Shown here: one piece after another, positions 6,789 to 39,481 of the stretch
How the letters are laid out: each line of letters starts with the position of its first letter
How positions within the stretch are numbered: position 1 is the first letter of the stretch
From: Candidatus Nomurabacteria bacterium
GTDB taxonomy: Bacteria > Patescibacteriota > Minisyncoccia > Phycocordibacterales > SBAW01
DNA: 44,520 nt
Direction of reading: 5' to 3'
Assembly: GCA_020854065.1 (NCBI GenBank)
Contig: JADZGF010000010.1
Location: 1-44,520, forward strand
Notes under the pieces: generated by a model
Told to the model about the DNA's origin: nothing
The model's database searches: none
Seen by the model: the letters and a program-made list of their open reading frames with translations, nothing else
Program-made: the position numbers and the translations under genes

Positions 6789-6806
6789 ATCCGCTACGAT
6801 TCATTC

Positions 6807-11910: not shown

Positions 11911-11919
11911 TCTATATCT

Positions 11920-14993: not shown

Positions 14994-15032
14994 TCTTGCC
15001 ATTTACCATTTTTTATGGTATTTCTGTAGCGC

Positions 15033-16289
15033 ATGACTTTTATTGAATGGGCATTTCGCGCAGGAGAAGGGCGTACCATAGTGCTTGATATTGATGGTAC
15101 GTTGGTGCCTGCAGGGGAGAGTGCAGTATCTCCGGACGTTGTTGAGGCGGTTTTTAAACTCAAGGAGCGTAACACGGTATTTCTTTTTTCAAACAAACAT
15201 CTGCCGGAGCGCAATCGCACAGTTGCGCATACTCTTGGTATTTCGCTCATTCAGTCCTCCTATCGCAAGCCGAATCCAAAAGTGCTCCGTGGTGTTTCTG
15301 AGGACGTAATCGTAGTGGGCGACAAGCACCTCACTGACGGACTGTTGGCATTTTTTTCCGGAGCCGAGTTCATACGGGTCGCTCGCGTAACTGCGGCTCA
15401 GGAACCCATTCTCGATAAAATTTTTAATGCGATCGATGATGTTGCAGGGCAGACGTGGTATTTTTTTAAGTGTTTGCGGCCGGAACAATGGAGTAAAAAT
15501 ATTCTTATATTTGTTCCGCTTTTCTTCGCTCATGCTGTTTTCAATCCCGCGGCACTCATGGCTACCGCTGCGGTATTTATTGCTTTCTGTTTTATTTCAA
15601 GCGCGACGTATATCGCCAACGACATGGCAGATGTTGCCACCGATCGCGAACATCCGACCAAGCGTTTCCGTCCACTTGCGCGCGGCGATGTGACGGTCCA
15701 GGGAGTGGTATTCCTTGGGGTCACGCTATTTCTCTCTGGGGCGCTTTTTGCATTTCTCTTTGCGCCGCTCGCGCTTCCGGTGCTTTGTGTATACGCACTC
15801 TCTTCAGTCTTTTATAGCGTCTACGGCAAGCATCTGCCGATTATTGAGATGCTCATGTTTATATGGTTTTATTTCGCACGTATGCTCGCTGGGGCGCTTG
15901 CCGCGTCCGTCCCGCTTTCAGCATGGTTCACACTCGCAGTGGTATTTCTCGCGCTCTTTATGATTGCCGCAAAACGATATACCGAGCGTATGCAAGATCG
16001 TTCGCGAGCGGTCTTGGCGCACTATTCACCTCTCTTTCTTCAGTCCATACTTATCGTGAGCGCCGCGCTCGTGGTCGCTTTTTATGCACTCTATACTGTA
16101 CTTGGTGAAGGTTCGACTCTTGCTGTATATTCGACCATCCCCGTAGTTTCCGGAATTGTGCGCTACTTGCAGCTGAGTCTTGGAGCCGAGTCGGCTGAAT
16201 CGCCCGAGCGACTTATTATTACCGACCCAGGACTTCTTGCGGCGGGCACTGTTTGGTTCCTGATGATGGTCGCGGTATTCTATTTCTAA
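15033..16289 (+). CDS. Fusion of a HAD-IIIA (YqeG-like) phosphatase and a UbiA-family polyprenyl-phosphate phosphoribosyltransferase (DPPR-synthase-like)
   Basis: The N-terminus has VLDIDGTLV (HAD motif I), FSNK and VGDKHLTD. The C-terminus has LRPEQWSKNILIF and NDMADVATDREHPTKRFRPLARGDV. As I recall, the latter is nearly identical in pattern to the Asp-rich motif of mycobacterial Rv3806c-type decaprenyl-phosphate phosphoribosyltransferases. About 8 TM helices. Confidence 0.75.
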   Translation: MTFIEWAFRAGEGRTIVLDIDGTLVPAGESAVSPDVVEAVFKLKERNTVFLFSNKHLPERNRTVAHTLGISLIQSSYRKPNPKVLRGVSEDVIVVGDKHLTDGLLAFFSGAEFIRVARVTAAQEPILDKIFNAIDDVAGQTWYFFKCLRPEQWSKNILIFVPLFFAHAVFNPAALMATAAVFIAFCFISSATYIANDMADVATDREHPTKRFRPLARGDVTVQGVVFLGVTLFLSGALFAFLFAPLALPVLCVYALSSVFYSVYGKHLPIIEMLMFIWFYFARMLAGALAASVPLSAWFTLAVVFLALFMIAAKRYTERMQDRSRAVLAHYSPLFLQSILIVSAALVVAFYALYTVLGEGSTLAVYSTIPVVSGIVRYLQLSLGAESAESPERLIITDPGLLAAGTVWFLMMVAVFYF

Positions 16290-16639
16290 TGGGGTACATC
16301 CTACTCATACTGGCACTTCTATTCAATGCGTTGGCAAATATCGCGCTGAAGCTCGGTGCCGCACAATTTGCGGCATTGCGCGAGACAGGGATAATGCGCG
16401 CGGTGTTTGAAAATCCGTATCTTCTTGGCGGTGTCGCACTTTTTGCATGCAATGTCGTGCTCTATGCGCTCGCATTGTCCCGTATTCCACTATCGGTGGG
16501 GTATCCAATTATGGTTGCGGGGGGAATCGTTATCGTTACGCTTGCCTCGGTGCTGTATATGAGAGAGACCATCGGTATATCACATTTCCTTGGTTTGGGA
16601 TTCCTGCTTATCGGAATTGTGCTTATTTCTTATAAGTAG
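16289..16639 (+). CDS. SMR/EamA-like 4-TM transporter, ArnE/ArnF-like candidate polyprenyl-phosphate-sugar flippase
   Basis: Start moved to ATG 16289 (TAATG overlap). 116 aa with four hydrophobic helices. ALANIALKLGA and VGYPIMVAGGIV are SMR-like. Confidence 0.6.
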   Translation: MGYILLILALLFNALANIALKLGAAQFAALRETGIMRAVFENPYLLGGVALFACNVVLYALALSRIPLSVGYPIMVAGGIVIVTLASVLYMRETIGISHFLGLGFLLIGIVLISYK

Positions 16640-16642
16640 AGT

Positions 16643-18169
16643 TTAGTGCCCACTTCTGCGGCACGCATACAAATGGACTGTTTCCGGCGTAAAGAGTGAG
16701 AATACGCTTGTCGGGTTTTCTACATGTCGGTCTGTGCGGGCGGTAAGAGTTTCGCATGCGTCTCCGGAGCTTGCACTCAACACCACATCCATGGAGGGTG
16801 TTCCAGTTGCGTAATGATAATAGTTCCAGGTTCCGAGCAGTTCTGTTTGTGCAAGTTTCTGGATGCGCGCCCCGGCAGGTCGGCCGACAAGTTCAGGATA
16901 AGAGAGATGCCACTGTGCCGCTTCCATACTGAGCGGTAATTCAATATCAATTCCAACTGCAGCAAGACGTTCGTCACGCGGAATATGTGTCTCTATCCAG
17001 TTTCGTGCAACAAGTGCTGGCGGGTCAGTGAGGTTCGAGAGCCACGCTATACTCCCGATCATGTTGAGAACGACGCACCCTATGCCAATCCATATTGGTG
17101 CACGAATCGCATGCATTACCGCAACTCCTAACAGAGTAAAAACTGCGGTAGGTAGTGCGAGCCACCGCACCGTATCCGGCATAGCGGCCACGAGTACCCA
17201 CACTATATAGGTCGCTATCGCCGCTATTGCCATGAGTCGAACATGGTGGTCGCGGCGGACCGCATAGAGAGTGCAGAGGGCTGCAAGAAACAGTAGGGCA
17301 GTTGCGGGTTCGAGTGCTACCCAATCTGTCCATAAAAAAGTGAGACGCTCCACAAGCGAATCGGCAGGAACTGCTTCTGCGAATGCCCCAGTCTCCCCAT
17401 GCATCCGCAAGGCTCCCAATATCATGGCAGCTGTTCCTTTAAAGTTGATGAGATAGAGCGGTATGCTTATCGCGGCGGCAGTGGCGACTCCTGGTACTAT
17501 GTCTCGCTTTTTTCGTAATGCAATAACTGGCCAGATAAACGCAATAATTCCGAGTACATGAGTACCGAAGGCCGCTGAAGCGAACGCTACTGATATAAGC
17601 CACACCCGCGAATTATTCGTAAGCCGTGCGTGCAGTCCGAAATACGCTGCCGCAAGAAAAAAAGCCAACATTGGTGCATGTGGCTTGCCCCAATGAGCGA
17701 CATTTATTTGTATAAGTGAGGTGGCGAAGATCGCGGCTCCGACAACTGCGTAACGCTGCTCTGCAAAAAGCCTGATGATGCGGTAGATCGCATATATGCT
17801 GGCAGTACTTGCCGCAGCTGCAGTAATACGTGCAGCGAGAATGAGTTCTGAAGTTCCATGGAGGAGTAAGTAATTCTCCAGCACGGTTGGAGAAAATCCT
17901 CTGGATTGTATCGCTATCCATGCAGACATTGCTAAAAATGCAGGTATGGTCGCGACCATCACGCCTGCAGGGTACGGTGATATAAATTCATTCCACACAG
18001 GCACGCCACTAAAAAGCCTCAGCAGGAACATAGAGGCGTCATGTTCGTCTGAAATAAGTCCAGTAAGAGGCATCCCCCATGTGAGTTGCCATATACGGAA
18101 GACAGCTCCAATAAACAGGATGCCAAGGAGGACAATTTCAAGAGGGACTCTCTTAATCATGTCTTTCAT
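16643..18169 (-). CDS. GT-C fold membrane glycosyltransferase (ArnT/PMT_2-like), minus strand
   Basis: 508-aa polytopic membrane protein with more than 10 helices and a soluble C-terminal domain of about 120 aa. It converges on the SMR gene with a 3-nt gap. The family call rests on topology and context only. Confidence 0.55.
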   Translation of the reverse strand: MKDMIKRVPLEIVLLGILFIGAVFRIWQLTWGMPLTGLISDEHDASMFLLRLFSGVPVWNEFISPYPAGVMVATIPAFLAMSAWIAIQSRGFSPTVLENYLLLHGTSELILAARITAAAASTASIYAIYRIIRLFAEQRYAVVGAAIFATSLIQINVAHWGKPHAPMLAFFLAAAYFGLHARLTNNSRVWLISVAFASAAFGTHVLGIIAFIWPVIALRKKRDIVPGVATAAAISIPLYLINFKGTAAMILGALRMHGETGAFAEAVPADSLVERLTFLWTDWVALEPATALLFLAALCTLYAVRRDHHVRLMAIAAIATYIVWVLVAAMPDTVRWLALPTAVFTLLGVAVMHAIRAPIWIGIGCVVLNMIGSIAWLSNLTDPPALVARNWIETHIPRDERLAAVGIDIELPLSMEAAQWHLSYPELVGRPAGARIQKLAQTELLGTWNYYHYATGTPSMDVVLSASSGDACETLTARTDRHVENPTSVFSLFTPETVHLYACRRSGH

Positions 18170-18186
18170 AATACTCGACTAAAGCG

Positions 18187-18195
18187 TGGTATAGT
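18187..18195 (+). promoter_or_regulatory. Extended -10 promoter element (TGgTATAGT) 9 nt upstream of ATG 18204, giving a near-leaderless transcript
   Basis: TGGTATAGT lies inside a 34-nt divergent intergenic gap. No SD sits between it and the ATG. Confidence 0.4.
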
Positions 18196-18203
18196 CCTCA
18201 ACG

Positions 18204-19238
18204 ATGAGGTATTTCGTTACCGGCGGGGCAGGTTTCTTGGGTATCAATCTCGCGCGACATCTCCTGGCGCAGGGGCATACAGTTGTCTCCTACGATATCG
18301 CCCCTTTCGATTACCCCGAAAAGGACACTATCACTGCGGTAATGGGCGATATCCGTGATTTTGAGTCGCTCAAACACGCGATGGCTGGTAGCGATGTAGT
18401 TATTCATACTGCTGCAGCGCTTCCGCTTTACAAACCTCACGACATTCGCTCGACTGATATCGACGGTACGCGCAATGTACTTAAGGCGGCGATGCAGTCG
18501 GGGGTCGCACGGGTCGTGCACGTCTCATCGACTGCTGTGTACGGTATTCCCGATCATCATCCTCTGGACGAGGATGATACGCTCGACGGCGTAGGGGAGT
18601 ACGGCAAAGCAAAGATCGCGGCCGAAGAACTCTGTGGTGAATATCGCGCCAAAGGATTGTGCGTGCCTATCGTACGTCCGAAATCATTCATTGGTCCGGA
18701 GCGTCTCGGTGTCTTTGCGCTTTTCTATGACTGGGCGGCAGATGGCAGAGGTTTCCCTATGATTGGCTCCGGCGCCAACCGCTACCAACTCCTTGATGTT
18801 GAAGATCTCTGTGACGCCATATATTTGTGTGCAACACTTTCATGCGAGCGGGTTAACGACGTGTTTAATATCGGAGCCAAGGAATTTACTACCATGCGCG
18901 AAGATTATCAGGCTGTGCTCGATCGTGCGGGTTTCGGTAAGAAAATAAGTGGTTTTCCTGCCGCTCCTATGATCTGGACTTTGCGCATCCTCGAGGCACT
19001 TAAACTTTCACCGCTCTATAAATGGGTATATGAGACTGCTAGCAAGGACAGCTTTGTTTCCATAGAAAAAGCCGAGCGGATATTAGGGTGGCGGCCCCGG
19101 TATTCAAATAAGCAGGCGCTTATCCGCAACTACGAATGGTACCTCGAACATCGCGGCGAATTTAAGAGTGCAAGTGGCGTGTCACACCGCGTTCCCTGGA
19201 GCCAAGGTATCCTCGCGCTTGCAAAGAAGTTTTTTTAG
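18204..19238 (+). CDS. NAD-dependent epimerase/dehydratase (extended SDR)
   Basis: [20 protein letters not shown] Rossmann motif, a YxxxK pair (YGKAK), and 344 aa in length. Confidence 0.8.
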
Positions 19239-19241
19239 CGT

Positions 19242-20333
19242 ATGCGTCTCTTCTATATTGCTAACATCCGCTTTCCGACCGAAAAGGCTCACGGAGCGCA
19301 AATAGCAAAGACGTGCGAAGCCCTCATGCATCAAGGAGCTGAGGTGACGCTCGTTACCACTGATCGTAAAACGGTGACCGAAACACCTCGCAATTATTAC
19401 AGGCTCTCCGTTGAGATTCCAACTATTCGCATCTCGGTACCCGATATTGTTTCCTGGGGGCCACTTGGTTTTTTTATCGAGTCATTGGTTTTTGCGTGGC
19501 GAATTAATTGTCCTGCACAAAGTGTTATCTATGGCCGCGATGAGTGGATATTGCTGGTTCTTTCGTATATGTGCAAATCGCCCATATATTGGGAATCACA
19601 TACCGGTGCGTGGAATCTTGGTGCTCGTATGCTTGCGAGACGTGCGGCAGGGATTGTGGTAATTTCCGAGGGTTTGCGCGACTTTTATATTGAACGGGGT
19701 GTTTCTGCCGGGCGCATGTTGGTTGCGTACGATGGAATCGACCTTGCGGCATTTGCGCATACGTTAGACAAAGAAGCCGCGCGCACTAAACTCGATCTTC
19801 CGCGTGACTCAAAAATCGTCATGTATGTGGGTCGTTTCGATGGATGGAAAGGGAGTGATACTTTTTTTAACGCTGCTTCGAGCCTTCCTGAGGACATGCT
19901 CGCGGTCGCGATTGGTGGCGAACCTACTCAGGTTGAATCCTTGCGCACTCGATATCCGGAAGTGCGTTTTCTCGGTTTTCGTCCCTATCGTGAGCTTGCC
20001 GACCATCTTGCTGCGGCCGATATACTGGCGCTTCCTAATACTGCAACCGACATTATTTCGGCGCGTTTCACCTCGCCGCTCAAGCTTTTTGCGTATATGG
20101 CATCTCAAAAGCCGATCGTTGCATCAGATCTTCCCAGTATTCGGGAAGTTCTTGATGAATCATGTGGGTATCTGGTTTCTCCCGACGACTCCGGTGCGCT
20201 TGCCGAGGGTATTCGTCGTGCGGTTGCGGATAGCGAAGCGTCCAACAAAGCAGCACTCGCACGAGAGCGGGTGGAGCAATACACCTGGACTGCACGTGCT
20301 GGCAAAATTCTCGGTATGCTTAAGAGTGTATGA
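19242..20333 (+). CDS. Glycosyltransferase family 4 (GT-B)
   Basis: MRLFYIANIRFPTEKAHGAQIAKT N-terminus, YVGRFDGWKG, and FTSPLKLFAYMASQKPIVASD at the C-terminal donor-binding region. Confidence 0.8.
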   Translation: MRLFYIANIRFPTEKAHGAQIAKTCEALMHQGAEVTLVTTDRKTVTETPRNYYRLSVEIPTIRISVPDIVSWGPLGFFIESLVFAWRINCPAQSVIYGRDEWILLVLSYMCKSPIYWESHTGAWNLGARMLARRAAGIVVISEGLRDFYIERGVSAGRMLVAYDGIDLAAFAHTLDKEAARTKLDLPRDSKIVMYVGRFDGWKGSDTFFNAASSLPEDMLAVAIGGEPTQVESLRTRYPEVRFLGFRPYRELADHLAAADILALPNTATDIISARFTSPLKLFAYMASQKPIVASDLPSIREVLDESCGYLVSPDDSGALAEGIRRAVADSEASNKAALARERVEQYTWTARAGKILGMLKSV

Positions 20334-21763
20334 CCTCATGGCTTCAATATGTGCTGATTCTGTGTGCAATCAGTTTGGTCGCGGTATTTTCAACGTACCG
20401 TCTTACTGAGTCGCCGCCGCTGTGGTATGACGAAGGGTACTATCTCCAAGCGGCTGTGAGTGTTGCTGAGCGCGGTGTTCAATCTATGCAAGTAGCACCG
20501 GGCGTGTATGAATCCACACAATACGTGACCGCGGGTTTTCCTCTTATCTACCCGGTTGGCGCTTCGATATGGATCTTCGGGGATTCAGTGGGGGCAGCCC
20601 GTGCGCCTATGGTGCTGTTTATCGCACTCTTTTGCGTTGCTGCATATGTTCTTGTGCGCCGCATTCACAATCCTTATGTCGCTGCGTGGGGAGTGCTCGC
20701 GCTCGCGTCTTTCCCGCTTCTGTACGGCAACGGCAAAAGTGTCCTCGGTGAAGTTCCGGGACTCCTCTTCCTTATGTGTGCATTGCTTTCGTTGTGGTTG
20801 CTTGAGCGCTCACAGTACCGAGAGTGGCGATATTACCTTCTTGTGGGTGTTATGAGCGGCCTCGCTCTTGCATCGAAGCCGATATTCATATTGTTTGTGG
20901 TTGCCCTTATGCTCACATGGTTGCTACGCTGGCGCTCGGTCCCAGTCACTCTTGTAGGTGTAGCTGCCGCTTTTGTTGGGTTTATGTCCGTTCTTGCAAT
21001 ATGGATACTCACCCAATTCGGGGGAGACGCGACACTCAGTTCGCTTGTCGCGTACTACGCTAATCCATACGAGATAGATCTTCTGCAAGCACTCCAATCG
21101 AATATTGTTCGGCTTGTAAGCGATGTGACGCCGCTTATGACGCTGATGCTTGTTGTGTTGTGGGGGATAGGGTTGGCACTTCGCCGCAGAAGCGGAGTTT
21201 CTTCCGCAGAATTGGCAGGGTTCATCTTTTGCGTGTTGATTATCTTGGCGTTCTTGCGGCTTGAAGGTTGGTACCGCTATCTCTTTCCTGCCGCAGCGGT
21301 CGCGCTTCCTTTTGCTCCGGCAGCACTCATTGTCCTTTTTGATCGGATACGATTCGTACTTCCGAAGCTTTTACAAACACCATGGATACCAGCAGTGGCA
21401 CTAGCTGTAATGGTGATCTTCCAGTATTCGCAACTCCTGAGTGGTTCCTTCGTTGCGCAATATTACGATAGTCATCGTGTGCGCAATCTTGCCGCTCTAT
21501 TACATGCCTATGATTCCGATACGTCCTTCTTTATATACAATGTCCCTGAAGTTGCGATCCTCCTTCCCTCGAAGAACTTTTACCAGTATATTGACGCTCA
21601 TGCCCGGGTGCAGATAGGTGAAGAGCAGCTCGAGGTGCTCCGTAGTGGCGGGGCTGATGTCACCATAGTGGACAAGGGTCTTTACGAGGTACGCCCGGGC
21701 GACTTTGCACGCTACACCCTCGCGCGATCGATCAATAATTACCGAATCTTAGAATTACAATGA
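20330..21763 (+). CDS. GT-C fold membrane glycosyltransferase (GT39/ArnT/PMT_2-like)
   Basis: ATGA overlap with the upstream gene. TM1 is followed by ESPPLWYDEGYYLQAA (an ArnT-type DExxY loop). More than 10 helices and a soluble C-terminal domain. Confidence 0.6.
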   Translation: MTSWLQYVLILCAISLVAVFSTYRLTESPPLWYDEGYYLQAAVSVAERGVQSMQVAPGVYESTQYVTAGFPLIYPVGASIWIFGDSVGAARAPMVLFIALFCVAAYVLVRRIHNPYVAAWGVLALASFPLLYGNGKSVLGEVPGLLFLMCALLSLWLLERSQYREWRYYLLVGVMSGLALASKPIFILFVVALMLTWLLRWRSVPVTLVGVAAAFVGFMSVLAIWILTQFGGDATLSSLVAYYANPYEIDLLQALQSNIVRLVSDVTPLMTLMLVVLWGIGLALRRRSGVSSAELAGFIFCVLIILAFLRLEGWYRYLFPAAAVALPFAPAALIVLFDRIRFVLPKLLQTPWIPAVALAVMVIFQYSQLLSGSFVAQYYDSHRVRNLAALLHAYDSDTSFFIYNVPEVAILLPSKNFYQYIDAHARVQIGEEQLEVLRSGGADVTIVDKGLYEVRPGDFARYTLARSINNYRILELQ

Positions 21764-22674
21764 CCTCCCGTATCTCAATCATTATTCCTTCCTATAACGA
21801 GGGTCAAAATGTTGATCTTTTGCACCGGCGTCTCAGTGCGGTGGCTCTTTTGCTGCCTGAATATGAGTTCGAATACATTTTCATAGACGACGGGAGTCGT
21901 GACGATACGTGGGGGCGTATCAAAACGCTGGGTGTCAGAGGTATTCGTTTCGCCCGTAATTTTGGCCATCAAGCGGCTATCGAGGCGGGCTTGCGCGCGG
22001 CAACGGGCGAGGCGGTTATTATGCTCGACGGTGATCTACAGCATCCGCCGGAGCTCATACCGACACTTATTGAGCGCTGGCGCGAAGGGTATGAAGTAGT
22101 TAATACAAAACGTGCCGACGCTGCGCACGCCGGGTACATCAAAAGATTGAGTTCTCATCTTTTCTATCGTGCTCTTAATACAATCTCCGAAATCACCATT
22201 GAGCCAGGTTCTGCCGACTTTCGTCTTATTGATCGTCGTGTCGTCGATGAGCTCAATAAACTGACGGAGAAGAATAAGTTCTATCGTGGTCTCGTCAACT
22301 GGCTTGGATTTCGCTCTGCGGTAGTGTCGTATGAGCCCAGTGAGCGTGTGCACGGCAATTCTTCCTATTCATTCCGCAAAATGATTTCCCTTGCGCGGGT
22401 CGGACTTACTTCCTTTAGCATGACACCAATCCGTTTTATTGCGTTTATGGGTGCGTGCATCTTTGTGTTTGGTGGACTCCTCACTGCATTTATGTTTTTA
22501 CACCGCCTTATTACGGCGACTGACTATTTCGGCGGCGCCGCAATCCTTGCCGGGTTTATTATCATGAACAACGGTTTCCTTATCTTTATCTTTGGACTCA
22601 TGTCTACGTATCAGGTGACCATGTATAAAGAACTTCAAAATCGTCCTGCGTATATTGTCCGCGAGGAACTATGA
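21760..22674 (+). CDS. GT2 polyprenyl-phosphate glycosyltransferase (ArnC/GtrB/DPM1/FlmF2-like)
   Basis: ISIIIPSYNEGQNV, IDDGSRDDT, FARNFGHQAAIEAGL and DGDLQHPPELIP, plus two C-terminal TM helices. This is the classic GtrB/ArnC architecture. Confidence 0.85.
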   Translation: MTSRISIIIPSYNEGQNVDLLHRRLSAVALLLPEYEFEYIFIDDGSRDDTWGRIKTLGVRGIRFARNFGHQAAIEAGLRAATGEAVIMLDGDLQHPPELIPTLIERWREGYEVVNTKRADAAHAGYIKRLSSHLFYRALNTISEITIEPGSADFRLIDRRVVDELNKLTEKNKFYRGLVNWLGFRSAVVSYEPSERVHGNSSYSFRKMISLARVGLTSFSMTPIRFIAFMGACIFVFGGLLTAFMFLHRLITATDYFGGAAILAGFIIMNNGFLIFIFGLMSTYQVTMYKELQNRPAYIVREEL

Positions 22675-23948
22675 TTCGCATTGATGTTATCGCCGATGAC
22701 TACGGCCTCTCGTCGGCGATCAATACGACTATTCTTGAGTGTATTGACCAAGGGGTTCTCACGGGAGTGAGTATGCTCGCAAATGGCGAAGCGCTGGAGG
22801 ATGCCGTAGTGCGGTATGTACCGCGCGCTAATCTCGCGTCACTTGCAGTGCATCTCAATCTCACCGAAGGCAAGGCACTTTCTCCGAGTGATATGATCCC
22901 GCTCCTGGTCGATGGCGTAGGCAATTTCCGCCATTCAGTTGCATCACTATGGTTGCATTATGTGTACGCTTCTAGTGCGGTTAAAGCGCAGTATCGTGCA
23001 CAGGTGGGGTTTGAGCTTCGTGCGCAGCTTGATCGCATTCGTGCCCTCCTTGCGCCACACAATCTCTCCGTTTCTGCAGTTGATGGTCATCAGCATGCGC
23101 ACATGATCCCGTTTGTGTTTGACGAAGTGCTTACGTTGCCGGGCATATCCCGCGTGCGTATATCCGCCGAGCCATGGTATTTTGCTCCCAGCTCGTTTGG
23201 CTCCTTAATAGGTGTCCACGCATTTGCACGAATTGTGCTCTCGTTTCTCGGACGTCGTAATCGTGCACTCGCTCGTGAAGCTGGTCTTACAGCACCTGAT
23301 ACGTTTCTCGGTGTTATGCATTCGGGGCGTATGACATATGCGGCTGTACGGGCAGGTCTGACACAGGTTGCTTCAGGGCACCATGTCGAGATAGGGGTAC
23401 ATCCTGGCATTGCAACCGAGACCGAATTGATACGCTGGCGGGAAGGTCGCGCAGATATTGCATGGCATTACTCACCATGGCGCGCTCGGGAACATGCACT
23501 GGTGTGTAGTAACGATTTGCGTGAACTCTTAGCTGCGTATCGGGGCGGTGCTTCGCTTCCGCGCCTGCCTATTGTGCGTATGGTATTGCGCTATCTTGTT
23601 TCAGGTACCATTGTGGCAGCAGTTGATTTCTCGCTGCTTTATCTTTTTGCCGAGATATTCGGCTGGTGGTATATCGCTGCAGCGACTGCGGCACTGATGG
23701 TAGCGTTTTTTGTTAGCTTTACTCTGCAAAAGTTTTGGACATTTAGTGACCGCTCCACACATGGTGTAGGTACACAACTTAAACTTTTTTTGATAATGAA
23801 CGTGTTTAATCTCGCTGCAAATGCATACTTGTTGCATCTGTTGGTTGAGGAGTATGGTATGTGGTACATGGCGGCCGAGTTCGCTATCCTTCTTGCAATA
23901 GCTGCATGGAGCTTTCTAATCATGCGGTTTGTTATCTTTAGATCATAG
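22671..23948 (+). CDS. Fusion of a YdjC/ChbG-family carbohydrate deacetylase (NaxD-like) and a GtrA-like 4-TM domain
   Basis: The N-terminus has IDVIADDYGLSSAINTTILECIDQGVLTGVSMLANG and VDGHQHAHM (YdjC motifs). The C-terminus has RYLVSGTIVAAVDFSLLYLFAE...FFVSFTLQKFWTF (GtrA family signature). Confidence 0.75.
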   Translation: MIRIDVIADDYGLSSAINTTILECIDQGVLTGVSMLANGEALEDAVVRYVPRANLASLAVHLNLTEGKALSPSDMIPLLVDGVGNFRHSVASLWLHYVYASSAVKAQYRAQVGFELRAQLDRIRALLAPHNLSVSAVDGHQHAHMIPFVFDEVLTLPGISRVRISAEPWYFAPSSFGSLIGVHAFARIVLSFLGRRNRALAREAGLTAPDTFLGVMHSGRMTYAAVRAGLTQVASGHHVEIGVHPGIATETELIRWREGRADIAWHYSPWRAREHALVCSNDLRELLAAYRGGASLPRLPIVRMVLRYLVSGTIVAAVDFSLLYLFAEIFGWWYIAAATAALMVAFFVSFTLQKFWTFSDRSTHGVGTQLKLFLIMNVFNLAANAYLLHLLVEEYGMWYMAAEFAILLAIAAWSFLIMRFVIFRS

Positions 23949-23950: not shown

Positions 23951-24637
23951 ATGGCTAACTGGGTAGATTTTTGGAATGGGGAACAAAGCGTGTATGTGTC
24001 ACCCCGACATATGCAGGCGTACTATAATACTCTCGCGCATAACATCAAGCGTGTGGTGGGGGGGAAGCGTCCGTATACACTTCTTGATTATGGATGTGGT
24101 GATGCATGGGCGGCAGGAGAACTTGCTGCAAGCGGTATCTCGGTCGTTCTGTATGATCCGGTCCCTAATGTTGCGGCACGCGCACATACTCGTTGGGGTG
24201 CTACGCCGGGTGTTCGCGTAGTCGACTCGCTTACCGAGATGGGTCCCGGGAGTGTAGACGGTATTCTTATTTTTTCAGTATTGCAGTATGTCTCAAAAGC
24301 CGATGCCGCAATATTAGTACGCGAACTTAAACACTATCTTGCTCCAGGTGGCACGCTGTATTTGGGCGATATTGTGCGGCCTGATACGGGGATGATTGCT
24401 GACGTTAGGGCGCTCTTTGTTGCTGGATTCAAACACGGTTTCTTTTTCGACGCGCTCATGGGGCTTATAAAGACATTCTTTTCCGATTATCGCCGTATCC
24501 GTAAGGAGCAGGGTTTTTCTACTTATACCGAGGATGAAATAACACAAATATTGGTACAAGCAGGATACACCGTTAAGCGTCTTCCAAATCTTGGCCTTTC
24601 TCCGCATCGGATGACCTTCGAGGCTACTTCCTCGTAA
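23951..24637 (+). CDS. Class I SAM-dependent methyltransferase
   Basis: LLDYGCGDAWAAGELAASG (motif I) and GGTLYLGDIV (post-motif II), 228 aa. Confidence 0.7.
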   Translation: MANWVDFWNGEQSVYVSPRHMQAYYNTLAHNIKRVVGGKRPYTLLDYGCGDAWAAGELAASGISVVLYDPVPNVAARAHTRWGATPGVRVVDSLTEMGPGSVDGILIFSVLQYVSKADAAILVRELKHYLAPGGTLYLGDIVRPDTGMIADVRALFVAGFKHGFFFDALMGLIKTFFSDYRRIRKEQGFSTYTEDEITQILVQAGYTVKRLPNLGLSPHRMTFEATSS

Positions 24638-24694
24638 CTAAGCTGCAAAAATAAGGGTTTTAGGGTATGATGGCCTAGTCAAAAGGCTATATCT

Positions 24695-26026
24695 ATGGCG
24701 AAAAAAGGGGACAAACAAAAAGTGGCATATATAGGCATGAGTGCCGACCTCGTACATCCGGGGCATCTTAATATCATTAAAGAGGGAGCCAAATTGGGCG
24801 AGGTAGTGATTGGTTTGCTTACCGATGAGGCAATTGCAAGCTACAAACGTCTGCCGTACATGAGCTATGAGCAGCGCCGCATTGTAGTAGAGAGTATTAA
24901 AGGTGTCTCGCGCGTTATCCCGCAAACGACGCTCGATTATCGGCCAAACCTTAAATTGCTCAAACCTGACTTTGTCGTCCATGGTGACGATTGGAAAGGT
25001 GGTGTGCAACGCGAGACTCGCCAGCAGGTTATAGACACACTAGAAAAGTGGGGTGGCAAACTTATTGAGCCAGCTTACACCAGCAACATATCTTCCACTG
25101 CACTTAACAACGCGCTTAAAGAGGTGGGTACTACACCAGACATTCGTCTTAAACGTTTTCGCCGCTTGCTTGGCACTAAACCAATTGTTCGCGGTATCGA
25201 GGTGCACAACGGTATTACCGGGCTTATTGTCGAACATGTATCGGTGAGTAAGAACAATAAAAAAGAGGAGTTCGATTTTATGTGGCTCTCTTCTCTTACC
25301 GACTCGACCGCTAAAGGTAAGCCTGATACTGAACTGGTTGATTCGACTTCACGTCTCACCACTATCCACGATGTGCTTGAGATAACTACCAAGCCGTTGG
25401 TATATGACGGCGATACTGGTGGATTGGCCGAGCATTTTCCATACACCGTACGTACGCTCGAGCGCCTCGGTGTCTCGGCAGTCATCATCGAAGACAAACA
25501 AGGTCTAAAGAAAAACTCCCTCTTTGGTACAGCAGTTAAACAAGAGCTGGCCGATCCGAAAGCGTTTGCAGAAAAGATCCGTGCGGGCAAAAAAGCACAG
25601 GTTACGCCCGACCTTATGATCATTGCCCGGCTCGAGAGCATGATCGCTGGTAAAGGTGTTAAAGACGCACTCAAGCGTGCAAAAATATATATCGACGCTG
25701 GTGCAGACGGTATTATGATCCACTCCAAAGAGAAGTCCCCCAAAGAGGTGCTTTCGTTTTGCCGCGAGTACGTCAAATTAAAAAACAAGGTTCCTTTGGT
25801 GGCGGTACCCAGCACCTACGACACGATTACTGAAGATGAGCTGCATAAAGCAGGTGTCTCGGTCGTTATCTACGCAAACCATCTTTTGCGCAGTGCCTAT
25901 CCGGCTATGGTTAAGACCGCGCAGACTATCCTAAATCATGGTCGTGCAACTGAGGCCTCGCAGGAGCTTTGCATGCCAATCTCTGAGATTTTGACGCTGA
26001 TTGAGCGCAAGAACAATGGATCCTAA
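24695..26026 (+). CDS. pepM: Fusion of an HxGH-type cytidylyltransferase domain and phosphoenolpyruvate mutase
   Basis: The N-terminus has [18 protein letters not shown] (HxGH motif at 24755-24766, TagD/CCT-like). The C-terminus belongs to the isocitrate-lyase/PEP-mutase superfamily. It carries the PEP-mutase-diagnostic EDKxxxxxNS motif ([10 protein letters not shown], 25490-25519). Confidence 0.85.
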
Positions 26027-27116
26027 ACAATTTCTCGATACGCTTGCGGGTCAAGGTATTACGTTTTTTACCGGTGTCCCTGACTCCTTGCTGAAGGAAT
26101 TTATTTCCTGCATCGAAGCGACTGTCCCACGCACGCACCATATTACTGCCGCTAACGAAGGTAATGCTATTGCGCTTGCTGCAGGGTACCAATTAGCAAC
26201 AGGGGCGGTGCCTGCAGTGTATTTGCAAAACTCTGGTCTGGGTAATGCGGTAAACCCACTTACTTCGCTCGCTGACAAAGAGGTGTACGCGATACCTATG
26301 CTGCTTATTGTTGGGTGGCGTGGCGAACCAGGCGTTAAAGACGAACCGCAGCATATAAAACAAGGCCGCATTACGCCTGCGCTTCTCGACATACTCGAAA
26401 TTCCTCGCACCGATAAGTTAGACGAGGTAGGTGCGCTTATTGAACGTGCTAAAGCAGAGAGTCGTCCGGTTGCACTTGTGGTGCATGCAGACGCATTTAG
26501 TGCATACCCAACAACTAAGGCGCCTGCAGCAGTGGCACTTACGCGCGAGGCTGCAATCGAGTCAGTTATTGCAGCACTTAACGAGCGCGACATTGTGGTA
26601 AGTACGACTGGCAAAATCTCTCGTGAACTGTATGAGGTGCGTAAACGCACAGGACAACCAACTAAAGATTTTCTTACCGTTGGCTCTATGGGCCACGCAA
26701 GCCAAATTGCACTTGGTATTGCGAGTCAAAAACCAGACAGACGCGTCGTGTGCCTCGATGGCGACGGTGCAACTATTATGCACATGGGTGCTCTTGCCAC
26801 CGCAGGGTTGGTTAAGCCAAACAATTTTCTACACATTGTACTTAACAACAAAGCGCACGAGTCGGTCGGGGGGCAGCCTTCTGCTGCGGGCGTTATCGAC
26901 ATTCCTGCGGTGGCGCGCGCTTGTGGTTATACCACCGCCACTGCAACTACCGTAAATGAAATTGGATCACGTATAGGTGAGTATAAAAATGCAGAAGGTC
27001 CGCACCTGCTCGAGATTATGGTTAATCTTGAGTCGCGCAAAGATCTTGCGCGCCCCGCAGAAACTCCTGCGCAAAATAAGCGATCATTTATTGATCATCT
27101 CCATGGCACAAACTGA
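26016..27116 (+). CDS. ppd: Phosphonopyruvate decarboxylase (ThDP-dependent)
   Basis: Start moved to ATG 26016 ([29 protein letters not shown], a typical Ppd N-terminus). ThDP-binding motif [16 protein letters not shown]...[14 protein letters not shown]. Overlaps the pepM stop by 11 nt. Confidence 0.85.
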
Positions 27117-28092
27117 GTATATTGGCGCGGGTGCACTTGCGCGTCTCTCCGAAATCATTGCGGAACACAACGCACAAAAAATATTTTTAGTGGTGGGGAA
27201 GAGTTCATACCAAGCTTCTGGAGCCGAAGCGGTTCTTGCGCCAATACTTGCGTCGCTTGCTGTCACACGATTTGACGAGCTTGGTGCACTCACGCTCGAG
27301 GAGCATGTAACAGAAGGTCTTTCGGTTTATAAAAAATGCGCACCTGACCTTGTTGTTGCAGTGGGAGGTGGCCATGTGCTGGATGCTGCAAAAGCTATCA
27401 ACGCTATGGGTAATAGGGTGCCGCTTGTGGCGGTTCCAACCACAGGAGGGAGCGGTGCCGAAGCAACACCTTTTGCAGTTATATATAAAGCAGGGGTAAA
27501 GACATCGCTCGATGGTCCTGAGGTTTTACCGACCTACGCTATTATCGATCCTCTGCTTATTGCATCGACTCCGCGTACAGCCGCTATTGCTTCCGGGCTT
27601 GATGCGCTCTGCCAAGCGCTTGAGTCACTGTGGGCTAAGGGCGCAACTAATGAATCTCGAGGATACGCCACAGAGGCGCTCGAACTTGTTGTACCGACAC
27701 TTAAAACCGCAGTCGACACGCGAGATCCTGCTGCGCTTGATTCGCTTGCACGTGGTGCGCATTGTGCGGGCAAAGCTATTGCTATTAGTAAGACTACTGC
27801 AGCCCATGCACTTTCCTACGGGCTTACATATCGCTTTGGTATTCCGCATGGTATTGCCGCCGCACTTTTAATGCCGCCTCTTATGCGTATAAACAAGGTG
27901 ATGTTGCCTGTCTCTGCCGAGGATATTGAGTCGCTGCTTAGACACTGTGACGTCGGTCCGCTCTCGCGCTTTGGCGTTAAAAGGTCTGACGCCGCATCGT
28001 TATCCGACGGTGTAGATCCAGAGCGTCTTGGCAACAATCCGAGAGCGCTTTCGAAAGAGGATATACAACAGCTATATATGAACATACTATAA
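27103..28092 (+). CDS. Group III (iron-type) alcohol dehydrogenase, candidate phosphonoacetaldehyde reductase (PhpC/FomC-like)
   Basis: Start moved to ATG 27103 ([10 protein letters not shown]). Motifs GGGHVLDAAK, PTTGGSGAEAT, DALCQALE and AHALSYGLTYRFGIPHG. It sits immediately downstream of pepM-ppd and overlaps ppd by 14 nt. Confidence 0.7.
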   Translation: MAQTEYIGAGALARLSEIIAEHNAQKIFLVVGKSSYQASGAEAVLAPILASLAVTRFDELGALTLEEHVTEGLSVYKKCAPDLVVAVGGGHVLDAAKAINAMGNRVPLVAVPTTGGSGAEATPFAVIYKAGVKTSLDGPEVLPTYAIIDPLLIASTPRTAAIASGLDALCQALESLWAKGATNESRGYATEALELVVPTLKTAVDTRDPAALDSLARGAHCAGKAIAISKTTAAHALSYGLTYRFGIPHGIAAALLMPPLMRINKVMLPVSAEDIESLLRHCDVGPLSRFGVKRSDAASLSDGVDPERLGNNPRALSKEDIQQLYMNIL

Positions 28093-28099
28093 GAGCATT

Positions 28100-28726
28100 A
28101 TGACCACGGACAAAATACGCACCCGCACTCCTGAAGAGTTAGAATATCGCCGCAAGGCGTTCTTTGAAATGTGCGATGTGCTCGATAAAGCAAATATCCC
28201 TTGTTTTTTGTGGGGAGGAGTACTCCTTGGAGCAATGCGCGAGAAGGATTTTATTGAGTGGGATTGGGATATTGAGATAGGGGTTTTTGCAGATGGCGTT
28301 AAAGGTCGCGCCCAGGAACTTGCCGCCCTTTTTTCTGCAGGCGGGTTTGAGGTATTTCGTGTCGACGATAACTATGAGAACTTTAAGATCGACATGGCTA
28401 AATATATGCCGGCCGAGGTATCGTCTTTTACCGTATGCAGTTGGTATAAAGAAGATGATATGTGGGTACGCAGTCTGTGGAAGATCCCCGCACCTTTCCT
28501 CGATACGTTGGGCGAAATCGAGTTTTTAGGTCGCACTTTTAAGTGCCCCAGCAATCCTGAGAAGTTTCTTGAATATCAGTACGGCGATTGGCGCACTCCA
28601 AAACGTACCGCAGACCAACGCGAATATCTTTCGGCTGCATTTTTTCGCACCGATAAGACGAAGGGGAATGTGTTTAAAAAGAATATCCAGCGTGCGGTAT
28701 CGTTACTGCGAGGTCTATTACGTTAA
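28100..28726 (+). CDS. LicD-family phosphotransferase (candidate CMP-phosphonate:glycan headgroup transferase)
   Basis: IPCFLWGGVLLGAMREKDFIEWDWDIEIGV matches the LicD pattern GTLLGAvR..gFIPWDDDiDi. 208 aa. Confidence 0.7.
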   Translation: MTTDKIRTRTPEELEYRRKAFFEMCDVLDKANIPCFLWGGVLLGAMREKDFIEWDWDIEIGVFADGVKGRAQELAALFSAGGFEVFRVDDNYENFKIDMAKYMPAEVSSFTVCSWYKEDDMWVRSLWKIPAPFLDTLGEIEFLGRTFKCPSNPEKFLEYQYGDWRTPKRTADQREYLSAAFFRTDKTKGNVFKKNIQRAVSLLRGLLR

Positions 28727-29436
28727 TTTTTTTTCACTACAACCGCAAAGAGCTGTTGACCATTTTTTGATGTGGCGTGCATATGGGTGCGCGTATATTG
28801 TCGGTATAAATAGGAAATGAGGGGTTGGTAGTTAAGGATGAAGAAGCGATTTGCCAAGAGTCGCGCAATGGTCGGTGCGGGTGTTTGTGCGTAATCGATC
28901 CGCTCTACCGTGAAGTGTTTTTCTAAAACAGTGCGTAGTGTTGTGTCGCTGAAGTGTTGGTAGTGTTTATCCTGTAGCGGCAGATTATCGGAAGGGACAG
29001 TAATTATGCCAAATCCTCCAGGCTTAAGATTTGCCGATACTGAATGTAAGAAAGAATCTACTTCTCCGAGGGGAATATGTTCCAGTACCTCCATAAGAAC
29101 AAAGGAGTCGAAAACCTCACTGGTCTGCGAAAGGAATTCTACTTCCGGGCAGAAAGCTTTCGCAAAACGCAGAGAGCGTTCCGAGTAGTCTGTTCCAACT
29201 ACGCGTCGGTTAGGAAATCGTTTCGTAATTTCGTACGTCAACTTGCCGTCGCCACAGCCAATATCGACGAGCGAATTCCATGTCCGTTTTGAGAGTTCGG
29301 CAAGGGTCATTTCTATACGGTGGGCGTAGCGGTATCCCCACCAAACGTATTTTGTTTGAGAAAAAGGCTCAATCTCTACCGCGTGGTGGTAGGGAAAGGA
29401 ATATTCTTCTTCCTGAAACCTCTGTGTCTTATCCAT
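28723..29436 (-). CDS. Class I SAM-dependent methyltransferase
   Basis: LVDIGCGDGKLTYEITKRFPNRRVVGTDYS (motif I) and FVLMEVLEHIP. Convergent with licD, with a 4-nt overlap. Confidence 0.75.
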   Translation of the reverse strand: MDKTQRFQEEEYSFPYHHAVEIEPFSQTKYVWWGYRYAHRIEMTLAELSKRTWNSLVDIGCGDGKLTYEITKRFPNRRVVGTDYSERSLRFAKAFCPEVEFLSQTSEVFDSFVLMEVLEHIPLGEVDSFLHSVSANLKPGGFGIITVPSDNLPLQDKHYQHFSDTTLRTVLEKHFTVERIDYAQTPAPTIARLLANRFFILNYQPLISYLYRQYTRTHMHATSKNGQQLFAVVVKKN

Positions 29437-29438
29437 AT

Positions 29439-30719
29439 TTAATTATGCAGTCGGGAAAATTGCCACACCGCTAAACTCATACGTACGCCCCGGTAGATGA
29501 ATTGGCTTATGATCGCACCCCAGATCCCATACATGATAGTAAGAGGCGGCAAGAGCAGCAAGAGCAGCACGGCACTCCCGTTGGTTGCAATATAGAGTGC
29601 TTTAGTTTTTTGATGCGCTTGGAGGGCCGCCATCAGAGGTGCTGTGCACGCAATAAACAGGAGTGAAATAGCATAGACTTGGGAGTATGGTATCGAGTCT
29701 AGATAAACAGGGAAGAATACGCTGAATAGATATGGCGCTACGACGATATAGGCGGTAATACCTGCCCCCAGCACTCCGGCTAAAACAAAGATCCGTTTCC
29801 AGATCGTCTGTTTGATTTCCCCAAGCGTTCGCTCTGCAAACTTTGGCATCGATAGTGGCACAAGGTTTTTTAACATACCTTTTATTTGCTCTGGTATAGC
29901 AATTGCGTAGGCATATACACCAAGCTGTGCCGGTCCGAGAAGGTTAAAGATCATCAGACTATCAATCTTGTCCGCGATAGTCGCTATAAAACCCATAACA
30001 CTCAGATGACTACTGTAATGCAGCAGCTGAGGTTCTTGTTCATTGTTGCGTGCGTGGCGGATAGTCAGCCAGTAGCAGATGCCTGCAAGGGCTGTCATAC
30101 CGATAAAGTACGCTGCTACATACACGATAGCCCGGTCACTCAAAAACAAAGCCCCAAGCAATAACAAAGTAGGGAAGAACGAGTCAAAAATCCCATACAA
30201 TGTGTTGCGGCGGAAATCTTTCTTCCCAATAAGATAGGGATCATATAGGGTAAAACCATTCAGTAGCGGTAATAACACAGCCACAATACATAAAGATGTG
30301 GCAAGAAAAAGATTTTGTTCAGCGAATCCGTAATACGCTGCTGCAGCAAGCGAGATAACGGTAATGCCCCAACTCCATCGCAGATTAAGTTTCCATGCTT
30401 GTTGAAGCACCCCTTCCTTTCCACGAGCTACCGCTTGGATAATAGCGGTCCCAAGTCCTGTTAACGAAAAGGCGCCGATAAGCGCTGCTGCGGTAAGGAC
30501 ATATTTGTAGTTTCCATACGCATCTTGAGTTGCCAAATGGCCAAAGCCAACAGCTAGGGTAAAACTCATAACAACCGCAGCGACTTGTCCTACAGTGAGC
30601 CAAAAACCACCTTGCGCCAGATAGAGCATATCGGTCTTGGTATAGCGCTCCGACCACCGCAAAAGCCGGGTTAAGCGCTCCTTTCCGTGAGCTAGCATGC
30701 GGTCAGTATAACTCGACAA
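29439..30719 (-). CDS. Wzx-like oligo/polysaccharide flippase (MOP superfamily)
   Basis: 426-aa protein with about 12 TM helices and a basic N-terminal stretch, typical of polysaccharide biosynthesis/flippase proteins. The start is uncertain: TTG at 30719 or the internal ATG at Met8. Confidence 0.7.
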   Translation of the reverse strand: MSSYTDRMLAHGKERLTRLLRWSERYTKTDMLYLAQGGFWLTVGQVAAVVMSFTLAVGFGHLATQDAYGNYKYVLTAAALIGAFSLTGLGTAIIQAVARGKEGVLQQAWKLNLRWSWGITVISLAAAAYYGFAEQNLFLATSLCIVAVLLPLLNGFTLYDPYLIGKKDFRRNTLYGIFDSFFPTLLLLGALFLSDRAIVYVAAYFIGMTALAGICYWLTIRHARNNEQEPQLLHYSSHLSVMGFIATIADKIDSLMIFNLLGPAQLGVYAYAIAIPEQIKGMLKNLVPLSMPKFAERTLGEIKQTIWKRIFVLAGVLGAGITAYIVVAPYLFSVFFPVYLDSIPYSQVYAISLLFIACTAPLMAALQAHQKTKALYIATNGSAVLLLLLLPPLTIMYGIWGAIISQFIYRGVRMSLAVWQFSRLHN

Positions 30720-33063: not shown

Positions 33064-33095
33064 GAACTCCGCCTCGGCGGAGTTCGTCGTTTTTG
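33064..33095 (+). terminator. Rho-independent terminator
   Basis: GAACTCCGCCtcgGGCGGAGTTC: a perfect 10-bp stem followed by gtcgttttt. Confidence 0.7.
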
Positions 33096-39141: not shown

Positions 39142-39480
39142 ATGTTAGTTAAAGCACTCGTTCATATCATCGCTACAGCCGCCGCGCTCGTGGTTATGAC
39201 TCGTATGGTCCCCGGCATATCAGTCGAGGGCTGGTATAGCGCCCTGATCGTCGCTGTCGTCTGGGGTCTTTTGGGGGTTACGATTCGTCCTATTTTGGGG
39301 CTTTTGACGCTTCCTATAAATATCATCACGTTCGGGCTTTTCTCATTCGTACTGAATGCGCTCCTCTTTTGGTTTGTTGCCTCTATTATCCAAGGGTTCG
39401 ATGTAGCAGGGTTTGTCCCCGCGCTTATCGCTTCCGCCATCCTCGCTCTGGTCTCTTACGCGGTGGGCATGCTTTTCTAA
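39142..39480 (+). CDS. DUF360 / phage-holin-4-family small membrane protein (YvlD-like)
   Basis: 112 aa with four hydrophobic helices. Motifs ITFGLFSFVLNALLFWFVASII and GFDVAGFVPALIASAIL. Confidence 0.75.
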   Translation: MLVKALVHIIATAAALVVMTRMVPGISVEGWYSALIVAVVWGLLGVTIRPILGLLTLPINIITFGLFSFVLNALLFWFVASIIQGFDVAGFVPALIASAILALVSYAVGMLF

Positions 39481-39481
39481 T

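Follow-up and report, generated by a model that had tools for sequence, protein, structure and literature searches.

In the fosfomycin cluster of Streptomyces wedmorensis, Fom1 joins a cytidylyltransferase (CyTase) domain of family PF01467 to a phosphoenolpyruvate (PEP) mutase (PepM, also called Ppm), while Fom2, a phosphonopyruvate decarboxylase (Ppd), and FomC, a group-III alcohol dehydrogenase (ADH), complete the route to 2-hydroxyethylphosphonate (HEP). The CyTase domain of Fom1 converts HEP and cytidine triphosphate (CTP) to the cytidine monophosphate (CMP) derivative CMP-HEP (PMC6697681). PF01467 is fused to 23.6% of RefSeq Ppm proteins, and LicD-like genes occur in Ppm neighborhoods (PMC6697681). 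The Pnt pathway (Rice et al. 2019, PMC6697681) also combines a Ppm-nucleotidyltransferase fusion with CMP activation and with nearby LicD-like phosphotransferases or glycosyltransferases, but the characterized PntC enzymes are LicC-like proteins of family PF12804 that prefer 2-aminoethylphosphonate (AEP), and their clusters contain an AEP transaminase. In the scheme of Li and Horsman, the 'PhpC' branch point accounts for 8.5% of Ppm neighborhoods (PMC8942020), and this HEP class includes the only chemically proven HEP-exopolysaccharide, that of Stackebrandtia (PMC8942020, its ref. 43). We analyzed a stretch of 44,520 nucleotides from a Candidatus Nomurabacteria bacterium (contig JADZGF010000010.1), called here the window, in which a core phosphonate cassette made of a CyTase-PepM fusion, Ppd and ADH (24695-28092, + strand) is followed by a LicD-family gene within a glycan locus. 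We consider it likely that this bacterium would convert PEP to CMP-HEP, and that LicD would transfer HEP onto a glycan exported by the neighboring Wzx and Wzy_C proteins.

The window resembles the fosfomycin cluster in its PF01467-PepM fusion, whose N-terminal domain is 62% identical to that of Fom1 (PDB 5X3D), followed by Ppd and a group-III ADH that would lead to HEP and CMP-HEP. However, the tailoring genes Fom3, Fom4 and FomD are absent from the window, and CMP-HEP, a transient intermediate in fosfomycin synthesis, is predicted here to be the donor of LicD in a glycan locus. The HEP-type (PhpC-class) phosphonoglycan clusters, for example those of Stackebrandtia nassauensis and Glycomyces, are also similar: pepM, ppd and an iron-ADH gene lie in a polysaccharide locus, with S-adenosylmethionine (SAM) methyltransferase genes nearby and with HEP predicted or proven as the substituent. 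The window differs from those clusters in belonging to Patescibacteria and not to Actinomycetota, in encoding a LicD-type transferase and in being known from its genes alone. From the Pnt systems it differs by its PF01467 domain and its ADH. With LicD, FKRP and fukutin, which transfer phosphocholine or ribitol-phosphate from cytidine diphosphate (CDP) donors, the LicD of the window shares a DxD motif, a nucleotidyltransferase-like fold and the pairing with a cytidylyltransferase. However, it is much shorter (208 aa), and its predicted CMP-phosphonate donor would give a phosphonate monoester, not a phosphodiester. Related loci compared with the window carry L-numbers. More than 580 stretches, in contigs representing one genome per species, encode a relative of the fusion protein, and the best 80 were analyzed.

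The fusion protein is composed of the PF01467 CyTase domain (about residues 1-145) and the PEP mutase domain (about 155-443). The PepM domain scores 377.3 bits against TIGR02320, above the equivalog cutoff of 319.55, and lower against the sister families phosphonopyruvate hydrolase (PPH, 136.5 bits), prpB (methylisocitrate lyase, 101 bits) and carboxyphosphoenolpyruvate mutase (36.6 bits). The EDKxxxxxNS motif is present at fusion residues 266-275, while the phosphonopyruvate hydrolase 2DUA has TS (...DTS) at the position aligned with NS. In a HMMER alignment, residues D58, D85, D87, E114, K120, N122, S123, R159 and H190 of the Mytilus PepM (1M1B) correspond to D211, D238, D240, E266, K272, N274, S275, R312 and H343 of the fusion, and W44, S46 and L48 of 1M1B are also kept. 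The nine residues from D58 to H190 are catalytic or Mg-binding in the Mytilus enzyme. A look-alike of the methylisocitrate lyase, oxaloacetate hydrolase or PPH type was ruled out by the equivalog scores, the NS motif and the catalytic residues, and the domain is judged to be a bona fide PEP mutase. The first-pass annotation, made from the DNA letters, had called it a PEP mutase from its motif, and the grouping with methylisocitrate lyase or oxaloacetate hydrolase that it named as a possible refutation did not materialize. In the CyTase domain, the PF01467 match (51 bits) covers fusion residues 16-137, with the nucleotide-binding motifs HPGH (21-24) and ISST (132-135). Among PDB entries it matches 5X3D, the Fom1 N-terminal domain, best by a wide margin (199.6 bits, E 7e-58, 87/140 residues identical); TagD (1COZ) reaches only 43.8 bits. 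Homologues 82-84% identical carry the JGI name 'PEP phosphomutase / 2-hydroxyethylphosphonate cytidylyltransferase'. From this homology, together with the co-encoded ADH and the lack of a transaminase, we infer that the CyTase substrate is HEP.

Ppd matches TIGR03297 over profile positions 1-360 of 360 with 454.5 bits (cutoff 312.5). Both thiamine diphosphate (ThDP) domains are present (TPP_enzyme_N and TPP_enzyme_C), as is the GDG-X25-NN motif, and the closest PDB matches are the alpha and beta subunits of a putative Ppd (9IZ3). The PepM and Ppd steps are as secure as sequence allows. The ADH matches Pfam Fe-ADH with 115 bits and has the metal site D167/Q171/H235/H249; Gln at the second position of this site is found in 57 of the 65 cassette-linked ADHs (L001-L080). 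In sulfoacetaldehyde reductase, Zn is held by a D/Q/H/H set of ligands (PMC13576164). The pattern D-x3-Q, as opposed to the usual D-x3-H, could mark phosphono- and sulfoacetaldehyde reductases. Homology and fixed synteny point to phosphonoacetaldehyde as the probable substrate of the ADH.

To define the phosphonate, we considered every open reading frame (ORF) of at least 150 aa across the 44.5 kb, bar a few lying wholly inside longer ORFs. Among these scanned ORFs there is no transaminase (Aminotran_5), no LicC-like cytidylyltransferase of family PF12804, no HEPD/MpnS-type dioxygenase, no radical-SAM gene and no cupin/epoxidase gene; genes for nonribosomal peptide synthetases (NRPS) or ATP-grasp proteins were not found in the window. 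The AEP branch was rejected because the transaminase and PF12804 are both absent from the scanned ORFs. The methylphosphonate, hydroxymethylphosphonate and fosfomycin branches were rejected as well, since there is no radical-SAM gene and the ORF at 13671-14993 reads as a hydrophobic protein and not as a dioxygenase. This ORF encodes 440 aa, about the size of HEPD and MpnS, has no Pfam matches and probably specifies a membrane protein, being strongly hydrophobic. An ADH fixed behind Ppd, a Fom1-type CyTase and the lack of aminotransferase, HEPD, MpnS and radical-SAM genes lead to HEP, in the form of CMP-HEP, as the predicted product, and not AEP. A CMP-activated C2 phosphonate, passed to a LicD-type transferase within a glycan locus, had been proposed at first pass; all sequence-level tests made here agree with it, and the ADH and the missing aminotransferase narrow the prediction to HEP.

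The Pfam LicD match (39.0 bits, gathering score 22.6) covers only residues 30-61 of the LicD protein, but the family assignment, already made at first pass, extends over most of the protein when FKRP is considered. Residues 23-163 align with the catalytic domain of FKRP, the best PDB match by sequence (phmmer, E 1.5e-10), and the DxD motif WDWDIE at residues 53-58, part of the fuller string WDWDIEIG, stands opposite WDYDVD of FKRP. The AlphaFold2 model (pLDDT 90.1, pTM 0.83) gave 13 top Foldseek matches in the PDB that are all FKRP (TMq 0.59-0.63), the best being 6L7S/6KAM (E 2.6e-9, TMq 0.62), and a long C-terminal helix is predicted at residues 187-207. A word-indexed search placed the short LicD subfamily in 11 clusters, and D55 and D57 are invariant across its alignment. 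A PF01467 cytidylyltransferase is encoded beside or near the short LicD in L084, L085/L086, L089 and L091/L092, so this subfamily appears to be habitually served by a neighboring PF01467 enzyme. The sole PF01467 domain in the window is the one fused to PepM. No stronger argument than this pairing is available for CMP-HEP as the donor of LicD, a role presumed by association. In L092 (584-3234), the short LicD gene is directly preceded by genes for Methyltransf_24 and radical-SAM (362 aa) proteins and directly followed by one for a PF01467 cytidylyltransferase, an arrangement that may represent another kind of activated head group. Taken together, the tests of sequence and structure support the family and the active-site integrity of PepM, Ppd and CyTase, the metal site of the ADH and the fold of LicD.

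Relatives of the fusion protein number in the thousands, and the closest of those with names come from Candidatus Kaiserbacteria and Paceibacterota. As the first-pass annotation suggested, we surveyed the block in related genomes: pepM, ppd and adh are contiguous and co-directional in 62 of the 80 loci, the remainder being mostly on truncated contigs. Relatives of the cassette were found in bacteria of the candidate phyla radiation (CPR), DPANN archaea, Bacteroidota, Ignavibacteria, Cloacimonadota, Desulfobacterota, Proteobacteria and others. In 11/80 loci a LicD-like gene is no more than a few genes away from the cassette; LicD stands between ppd and adh in L028 and adjoins the cassette in L014, L025, L065, L068 and L078. 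A CDP-alcohol phosphatidyltransferase gene directly follows the ADH in 3/60 loci, and in L003, L006 and L082 the cassette is followed by such a gene and then by one for a TagF-like protein. The TagF-like, LicD and CDP-alcohol phosphatidyltransferase families all draw on donors activated with CDP or CMP, in keeping with CMP-HEP as the currency of the cassette. As HEP has a free hydroxyl, a teichoic-acid-like polyphosphonate could in principle arise if a TagF-like enzyme polymerized CMP-HEP. In L001 and L002 the cassette is located elsewhere, 3' of a block of family 4 glycosyltransferase (GT4) genes homologous to window 5658-10454. With such varied positions and varied following transferases, the three-gene unit behaves as a portable module.

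A neighbor-joining (NJ) tree places the fusion protein of the window in a CPR clade with L001-L008. The G+C content and the G+C content at third codon positions (GC3) of the cassette are like those of neighboring genes, and no flanking direct or inverted repeats beyond matches of chance size were found around it. These observations give no sign of a recent horizontal insertion or of contamination. The named homologues of Obg from the window are all from Patescibacteria, and the cassette is judged native to a Paceibacteria-type CPR bacterium. In DPANN archaea (Woesearchaeota, Nanoarchaeota and Aenigmatarchaeota; L010, L011, L023, L070 and L072), fusions 65-69% identical to that of the window are followed by ppd and adh. 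These fusions group with L056 (labelled Saccharibacteria) in a rough NJ tree, which suggests that ultra-small bacteria and archaea have exchanged the cassette.

Several relatives retain the glycan locus around the cassette. L081, with a PepM 95% identical, has the gene order of the window plus one extra methyltransferase gene. The extra gene (L081:10548-11156, + strand) encodes a 202-aa class-I methyltransferase between licD and MT2, the second of the two methyltransferase genes of the window (MT1 and MT2), whereas licD and MT2 of the window overlap by 4 nt tail to tail; the two near relatives thus differ cleanly in the presence of this gene. L084 and L085/L086 have in common a backbone that consists of PMT_2, a protein of the GtrA family (YdjC-fused in L084), a family 2 glycosyltransferase (GT2), LicD, Wzx, Wzy_C-TPR, MurB and SecA, with about 50% identity to the window for LicD, 53-57% for Wzx and 60-67% for SecA. 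In the slot 5' of LicD, where the window has the cassette, these loci encode a stand-alone PF01467 cytidylyltransferase (139-147 aa) and a protein of 180-189 aa. The latter, encoded between the cytidylyltransferase and LicD (L084:7458-8000, L085:7423-7992), has no Pfam family; in L084 it shows faint matches to the pyruvate-kinase barrel (E ~2e-4) and may make the substrate cytidylylated there. L087 retains the backbone without phosphonate genes: GT4, PMT_2, YdjC-GtrA, MT1 (42% identical), GT2, LicD (62%), MT2 (59%) and Wzx (60%), with the MT1 homologue 3' of YdjC-GtrA and the MT2 homologue between LicD and Wzx. The YdjC-GtrA fusion is kept in L081, L084 and L087, and syntenic Wzx homologues are 53-93% identical in L081, L084, L085 and L087. 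In the relatives Wzy_C-TPR adjoins Wzx, and secA is close downstream where contigs extend that far.

Since homologues of MT1 and MT2 are found in L087 without phosphonate genes, both belong to the backbone. Their presence, reported at first pass, stands, but they are backbone neighbors and not demonstrably part of the phosphonate branch in which they had been counted. A role as phosphonate-tailoring enzymes is not supported, the homologues occupying the same backbone positions in phosphonate-free L087. No MT1-like gene was found in the 80 cassette loci, and weak MT2-like genes are near the cassette in L028 and L046. MT2 may methylate a sugar. Yu et al. in 2014 reportedly described O-methylated galactose in HEP-bearing actinomycete glycans.

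These comparisons raise the possibility, which we put forward tentatively and with some doubt, that the donor module serving LicD is interchangeable in a Paceibacteria backbone (PMT_2, YdjC-GtrA, GT2, LicD, Wzx, Wzy_C-TPR, with secA downstream), and that PepM-Ppd-ADH replaced a phosphate-ester module. With a stand-alone cytidylyltransferase in the slot of the relatives, the best view of HEP would be that it was swapped in for a phosphate-ester head group and, unlike the latter, resists hydrolysis.

In the proposed mechanism, the PepM domain would convert PEP to phosphonopyruvate, and Ppd would decarboxylate this to phosphonoacetaldehyde, pulling the unfavorable mutase equilibrium. The group-III ADH would reduce phosphonoacetaldehyde to HEP, which the PepM-fused CyTase domain would couple with CTP to give CMP-HEP. 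On the cytoplasmic face, the LicD/FKRP-type transferase would move the HEP-phosphonyl group from CMP-HEP to a sugar hydroxyl of a lipid-linked saccharide. The Wzx-like protein would then flip the HEP-bearing saccharide, and Wzy_C-TPR would polymerize or ligate it outside the membrane. A glycan as acceptor and export by way of Wzx and Wzy_C are suggested by the gene neighborhood.

Several points weigh against this reading. The substrate assignments all come from homology or context. The ADH has TIGR03405 (Phn_Fe-ADH) as its top NCBIfam match, but its 150.1 bits are far under the cutoff of 423.7 and outside that family, in a near tie with lactaldehyde reductase (141.6 bits); its functional call therefore rests on context and not on TIGR03405. 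PF01467 domains fused to Ppm occur also in AEP-type clusters (PMC8942020), so the domain family alone cannot fix the CyTase substrate. No priming phosphoglycosyltransferase (PF02397, PF00953) was found in the window, where the Wzx/Wzy-type assembly line is thus incomplete, but one may lie elsewhere in the genome. The Wzy_C family includes ligases and protein O-oligosaccharyltransferases, and the final carrier could therefore be a polysaccharide, a protein or a lipid. Directly behind the ADH, the commonest gene is a TagF-like one (Glyphos_transf, 21/60 loci), while LicD takes this place in 3/60. The top and only NCBIfam match of LicD is the Mf1 lipid cholinephosphotransferase (53.5 bits, sub-cutoff), so the acceptor could be a lipid. 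Finally, L087 keeps its LicD without a nearby cytidylyltransferase, and LicD is therefore not strictly dependent on an adjoining donor module.

The match to Mf1 bears on a variant in which CMP-HEP is made as proposed but LicD places HEP on a membrane lipid or glycolipid, giving a phosphonolipid head group. LicD and its homologues match only this Mycoplasma diacylglycerol/glycolipid cholinephosphotransferase in NCBIfam (53-74 bits, all sub-cutoff), the long C-terminal helix of the model might sit on the membrane, and the close CPR relatives L003, L006 and L082 have a lipid head-group enzyme, the CDP-alcohol phosphatidyltransferase, after the cassette. However, LicD adjoins Wzx and Wzy_C-TPR in five loci (window, L081, L084, L085 and L086), is next to Wzx in L087, where the contig ends, and is surrounded by more than 10 glycosyltransferase genes in the window; FKRP, its closest structural relative, modifies a glycan, and characterized LicD proteins mostly decorate glycans. 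We therefore regard a lipid acceptor as unlikely. The LicD of L087, with neither cytidylyltransferase nor phosphonate genes nearby, the TagF-like or other transferases that follow the cassette more often than LicD, and the different position of the cassette in the syntenic GT4 block of L001 and L002 would also suit a LicD that uses another donor made elsewhere (CDP-glycerol, CDP-ribitol or CDP-choline). In that case a transferase encoded outside the window would use up CMP-HEP, or HEP would be released as a metabolite, soluble or intermediate, and the adjacency would reflect a chance insertion at a permissive position. This is quite improbable in view of the tight packing on one strand, with 7 nt between adh and licD, an arrangement kept in L081, and of the independent occurrence of LicD inside or adjoining the cassette in the six loci named above. 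The recurrent pairing of the LicD subfamily with PF01467, for which the PepM-fused domain is the sole candidate in the window, also argues against it.

The transferred group could instead be AEP, or an N-methylated form made by the neighboring methyltransferases, with the transaminase encoded elsewhere and another role for the ADH. AEP is the commonest surface phosphonate, with 56% of Ppm neighborhoods (PMC8942020), LicD classically moves phosphocholine-like groups, and two or three methyltransferases flank the cassette. We find this very improbable, because no aminotransferase is present in 44.5 kb, the ADH is a constant member of the cassette in many phyla, the CyTase belongs to the Fom1 (HEP) type and not to the PF12804 PntC type shown to prefer AEP, and MT1 and MT2 are also present in phosphonate-free L087. 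The Fom1-like fusion, Ppd and FomC/PhpC-like ADH are equivalent to the first three steps of fosfomycin synthesis (PMC6697681, PMC13576164), and a diffusible natural product, fosfomycin-like or phosphinothricin-like, might be imagined. This is scarcely credible, as no genes for a Fom3-type radical-SAM methyltransferase, Fom4 epoxidase, HEPD, MpnS, NRPS or ATP-grasp proteins were found and the neighbors are all glycan-assembly genes.

The features of the locus are listed in Table 1. The ORF list and the spacings agree with the first-pass annotation of seven consecutive and mostly overlapping ORFs from MT1 to the flippase, and the motifs quoted there for PepM, Ppd and LicD (WDWDIEIG) are all present. 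Ppd and ADH probably start at internal ATG codons (26016 and 27103) and not at the TTG and GTG codons of the mechanically called ORFs. With these starts, the spacings from the fusion through Ppd, ADH, LicD and MT2 to Wzx are -11, -14, +7, -4 and +2 nt. The Pfam matches to Fe-ADH, LicD, Polysacc_synt and Wzy_C each exceed the gathering score. A terminator-like hairpin at 33064-33085, 3' of the Wzy_C-TPR gene, is the sole clear one in the region. The promoter scan was uninformative, with 14 matches against 15.0 +/- 3.6 in shuffled sequence.

Table 1. Genes of the phosphonate cassette and its surroundings (window positions, except where a locus number is given)
Feature	Position	Strand	Supporting matches
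PMT_2 GT-C glycosyltransferase	20330-21763	+	Pfam/NCBIfam matches
GT2 polyprenyl-phosphate sugar synthase, PgfS/ArnC type	21760-22674	+	Pfam/NCBIfam matches
YdjC deacetylase-GtrA fusion	22671-23948	+	Pfam/NCBIfam matches
MT1, class-I SAM methyltransferase	23951-24637	+	Methyltransf_23 and Methyltransf_11
Cytidylyltransferase-PepM fusion, 443 aa, Fom1-type bifunctional	24695-26026	+	TIGR02320, PF01467, 5X3D
Ppd, ThDP-dependent	26016-27116 (mechanical ORF: TTG 26001)	+	TIGR03297
Group-III (Fe/Zn) ADH, predicted phosphonoacetaldehyde reductase	27103-28092 (mechanical ORF: GTG 26977)	+	Pfam Fe-ADH, synteny
LicD, 208 aa, predicted CMP-HEP:acceptor HEP-phosphonyl transferase	28100-28726	+	Pfam LicD, FKRP sequence and fold
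MT2, class-I SAM methyltransferase	28723-29436	-	Several methyltransferase Pfam families
Wzx-like flippase (Polysacc_synt), convergent with the cassette	29439-30719	-	PF01943 (41 bits), PF13440 (40 bits)
Wzy_C (O-antigen ligase/polymerase/oligosaccharyltransferase family) membrane protein with C-terminal TPR, 747 aa	30741-32984	+	PF04932 (73 bits), several TPR families
CDP-alcohol phosphatidyltransferase and TagF-like stretch of related loci	L003:11439-14137, L006:11361-14586, L082:10099-12796		

The cassette is part of a very large glycan locus. Window 4861-20333 contains six GT4 genes, two epimerase/dehydratases, a short, 302-aa protein of the UDP-glucose/GDP-mannose dehydrogenase family that lacks the C-terminal domain, a fusion of GT2 and methyltransferase, a homologue of asparagine synthase, a prenyl/phosphoribosyl transferase of the UbiA family, a PMT_2 GT-C enzyme and the hydrophobic protein of 13671-14993. 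The set at 20330-23948 (GT2 of the PgfS/ArnC type, YdjC-GtrA and PMT_2) resembles the logic of ArnC/ArnD/ArnE-F/ArnT, in which a polyprenyl-phosphate-linked N-acyl sugar is made, deacylated, flipped and transferred outside. A homologue of TrwB/TraG-like coupling proteins (625 aa) is encoded in window 1885-4855, followed by a ComEA-like helix-hairpin-helix protein with PKD and lamin-tail domains. The mechanically called Obg ORF (39413-40456, 347 aa, TTG start) exceeds its homologues by about 23 residues. These have about 322-324 aa and cover 93% of the ORF, and the real start is probably downstream.

The pathway logic of this locus is already described (PMC6697681, PMC8942020), and the locus extends known biology without new chemistry. 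The host lineage and the apparent swap of the donor module in a conserved envelope locus are less trodden: in the literature searched, no paper linking phosphonates with CPR/Patescibacteria was found. The first-pass annotation had considered phosphonoglycans rare in ultra-small or uncultivated lineages, but many homologous cassettes occur in publicly available CPR and DPANN genomes, and the rarity is one of discussion and not of occurrence. In environmental organic phosphorus of high molecular weight, HEP is among the main phosphonates (PMC8931226). Abundant CPR and DPANN cells of groundwater and sediment carrying the cassette would be a possible, unaccounted source of environmental phosphonate. 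The stand-alone cytidylyltransferase and the phosphonate cassette, found at one slot in different relatives, are a natural experiment, with small soluble proteins, on the donor specificity of LicD. CPR/Patescibacteria live attached to hosts, yet hardly anything is known of their surface chemistry, and the predicted HEP substituent gives a specific structure to look for. If the swap is real, a surface phosphonate monoester, whose C-P bond is not split by phosphatases, would replace a phosphodiester substituent, which could have a bearing on how an obligate episymbiont attaches to its host or is protected from host and phages.

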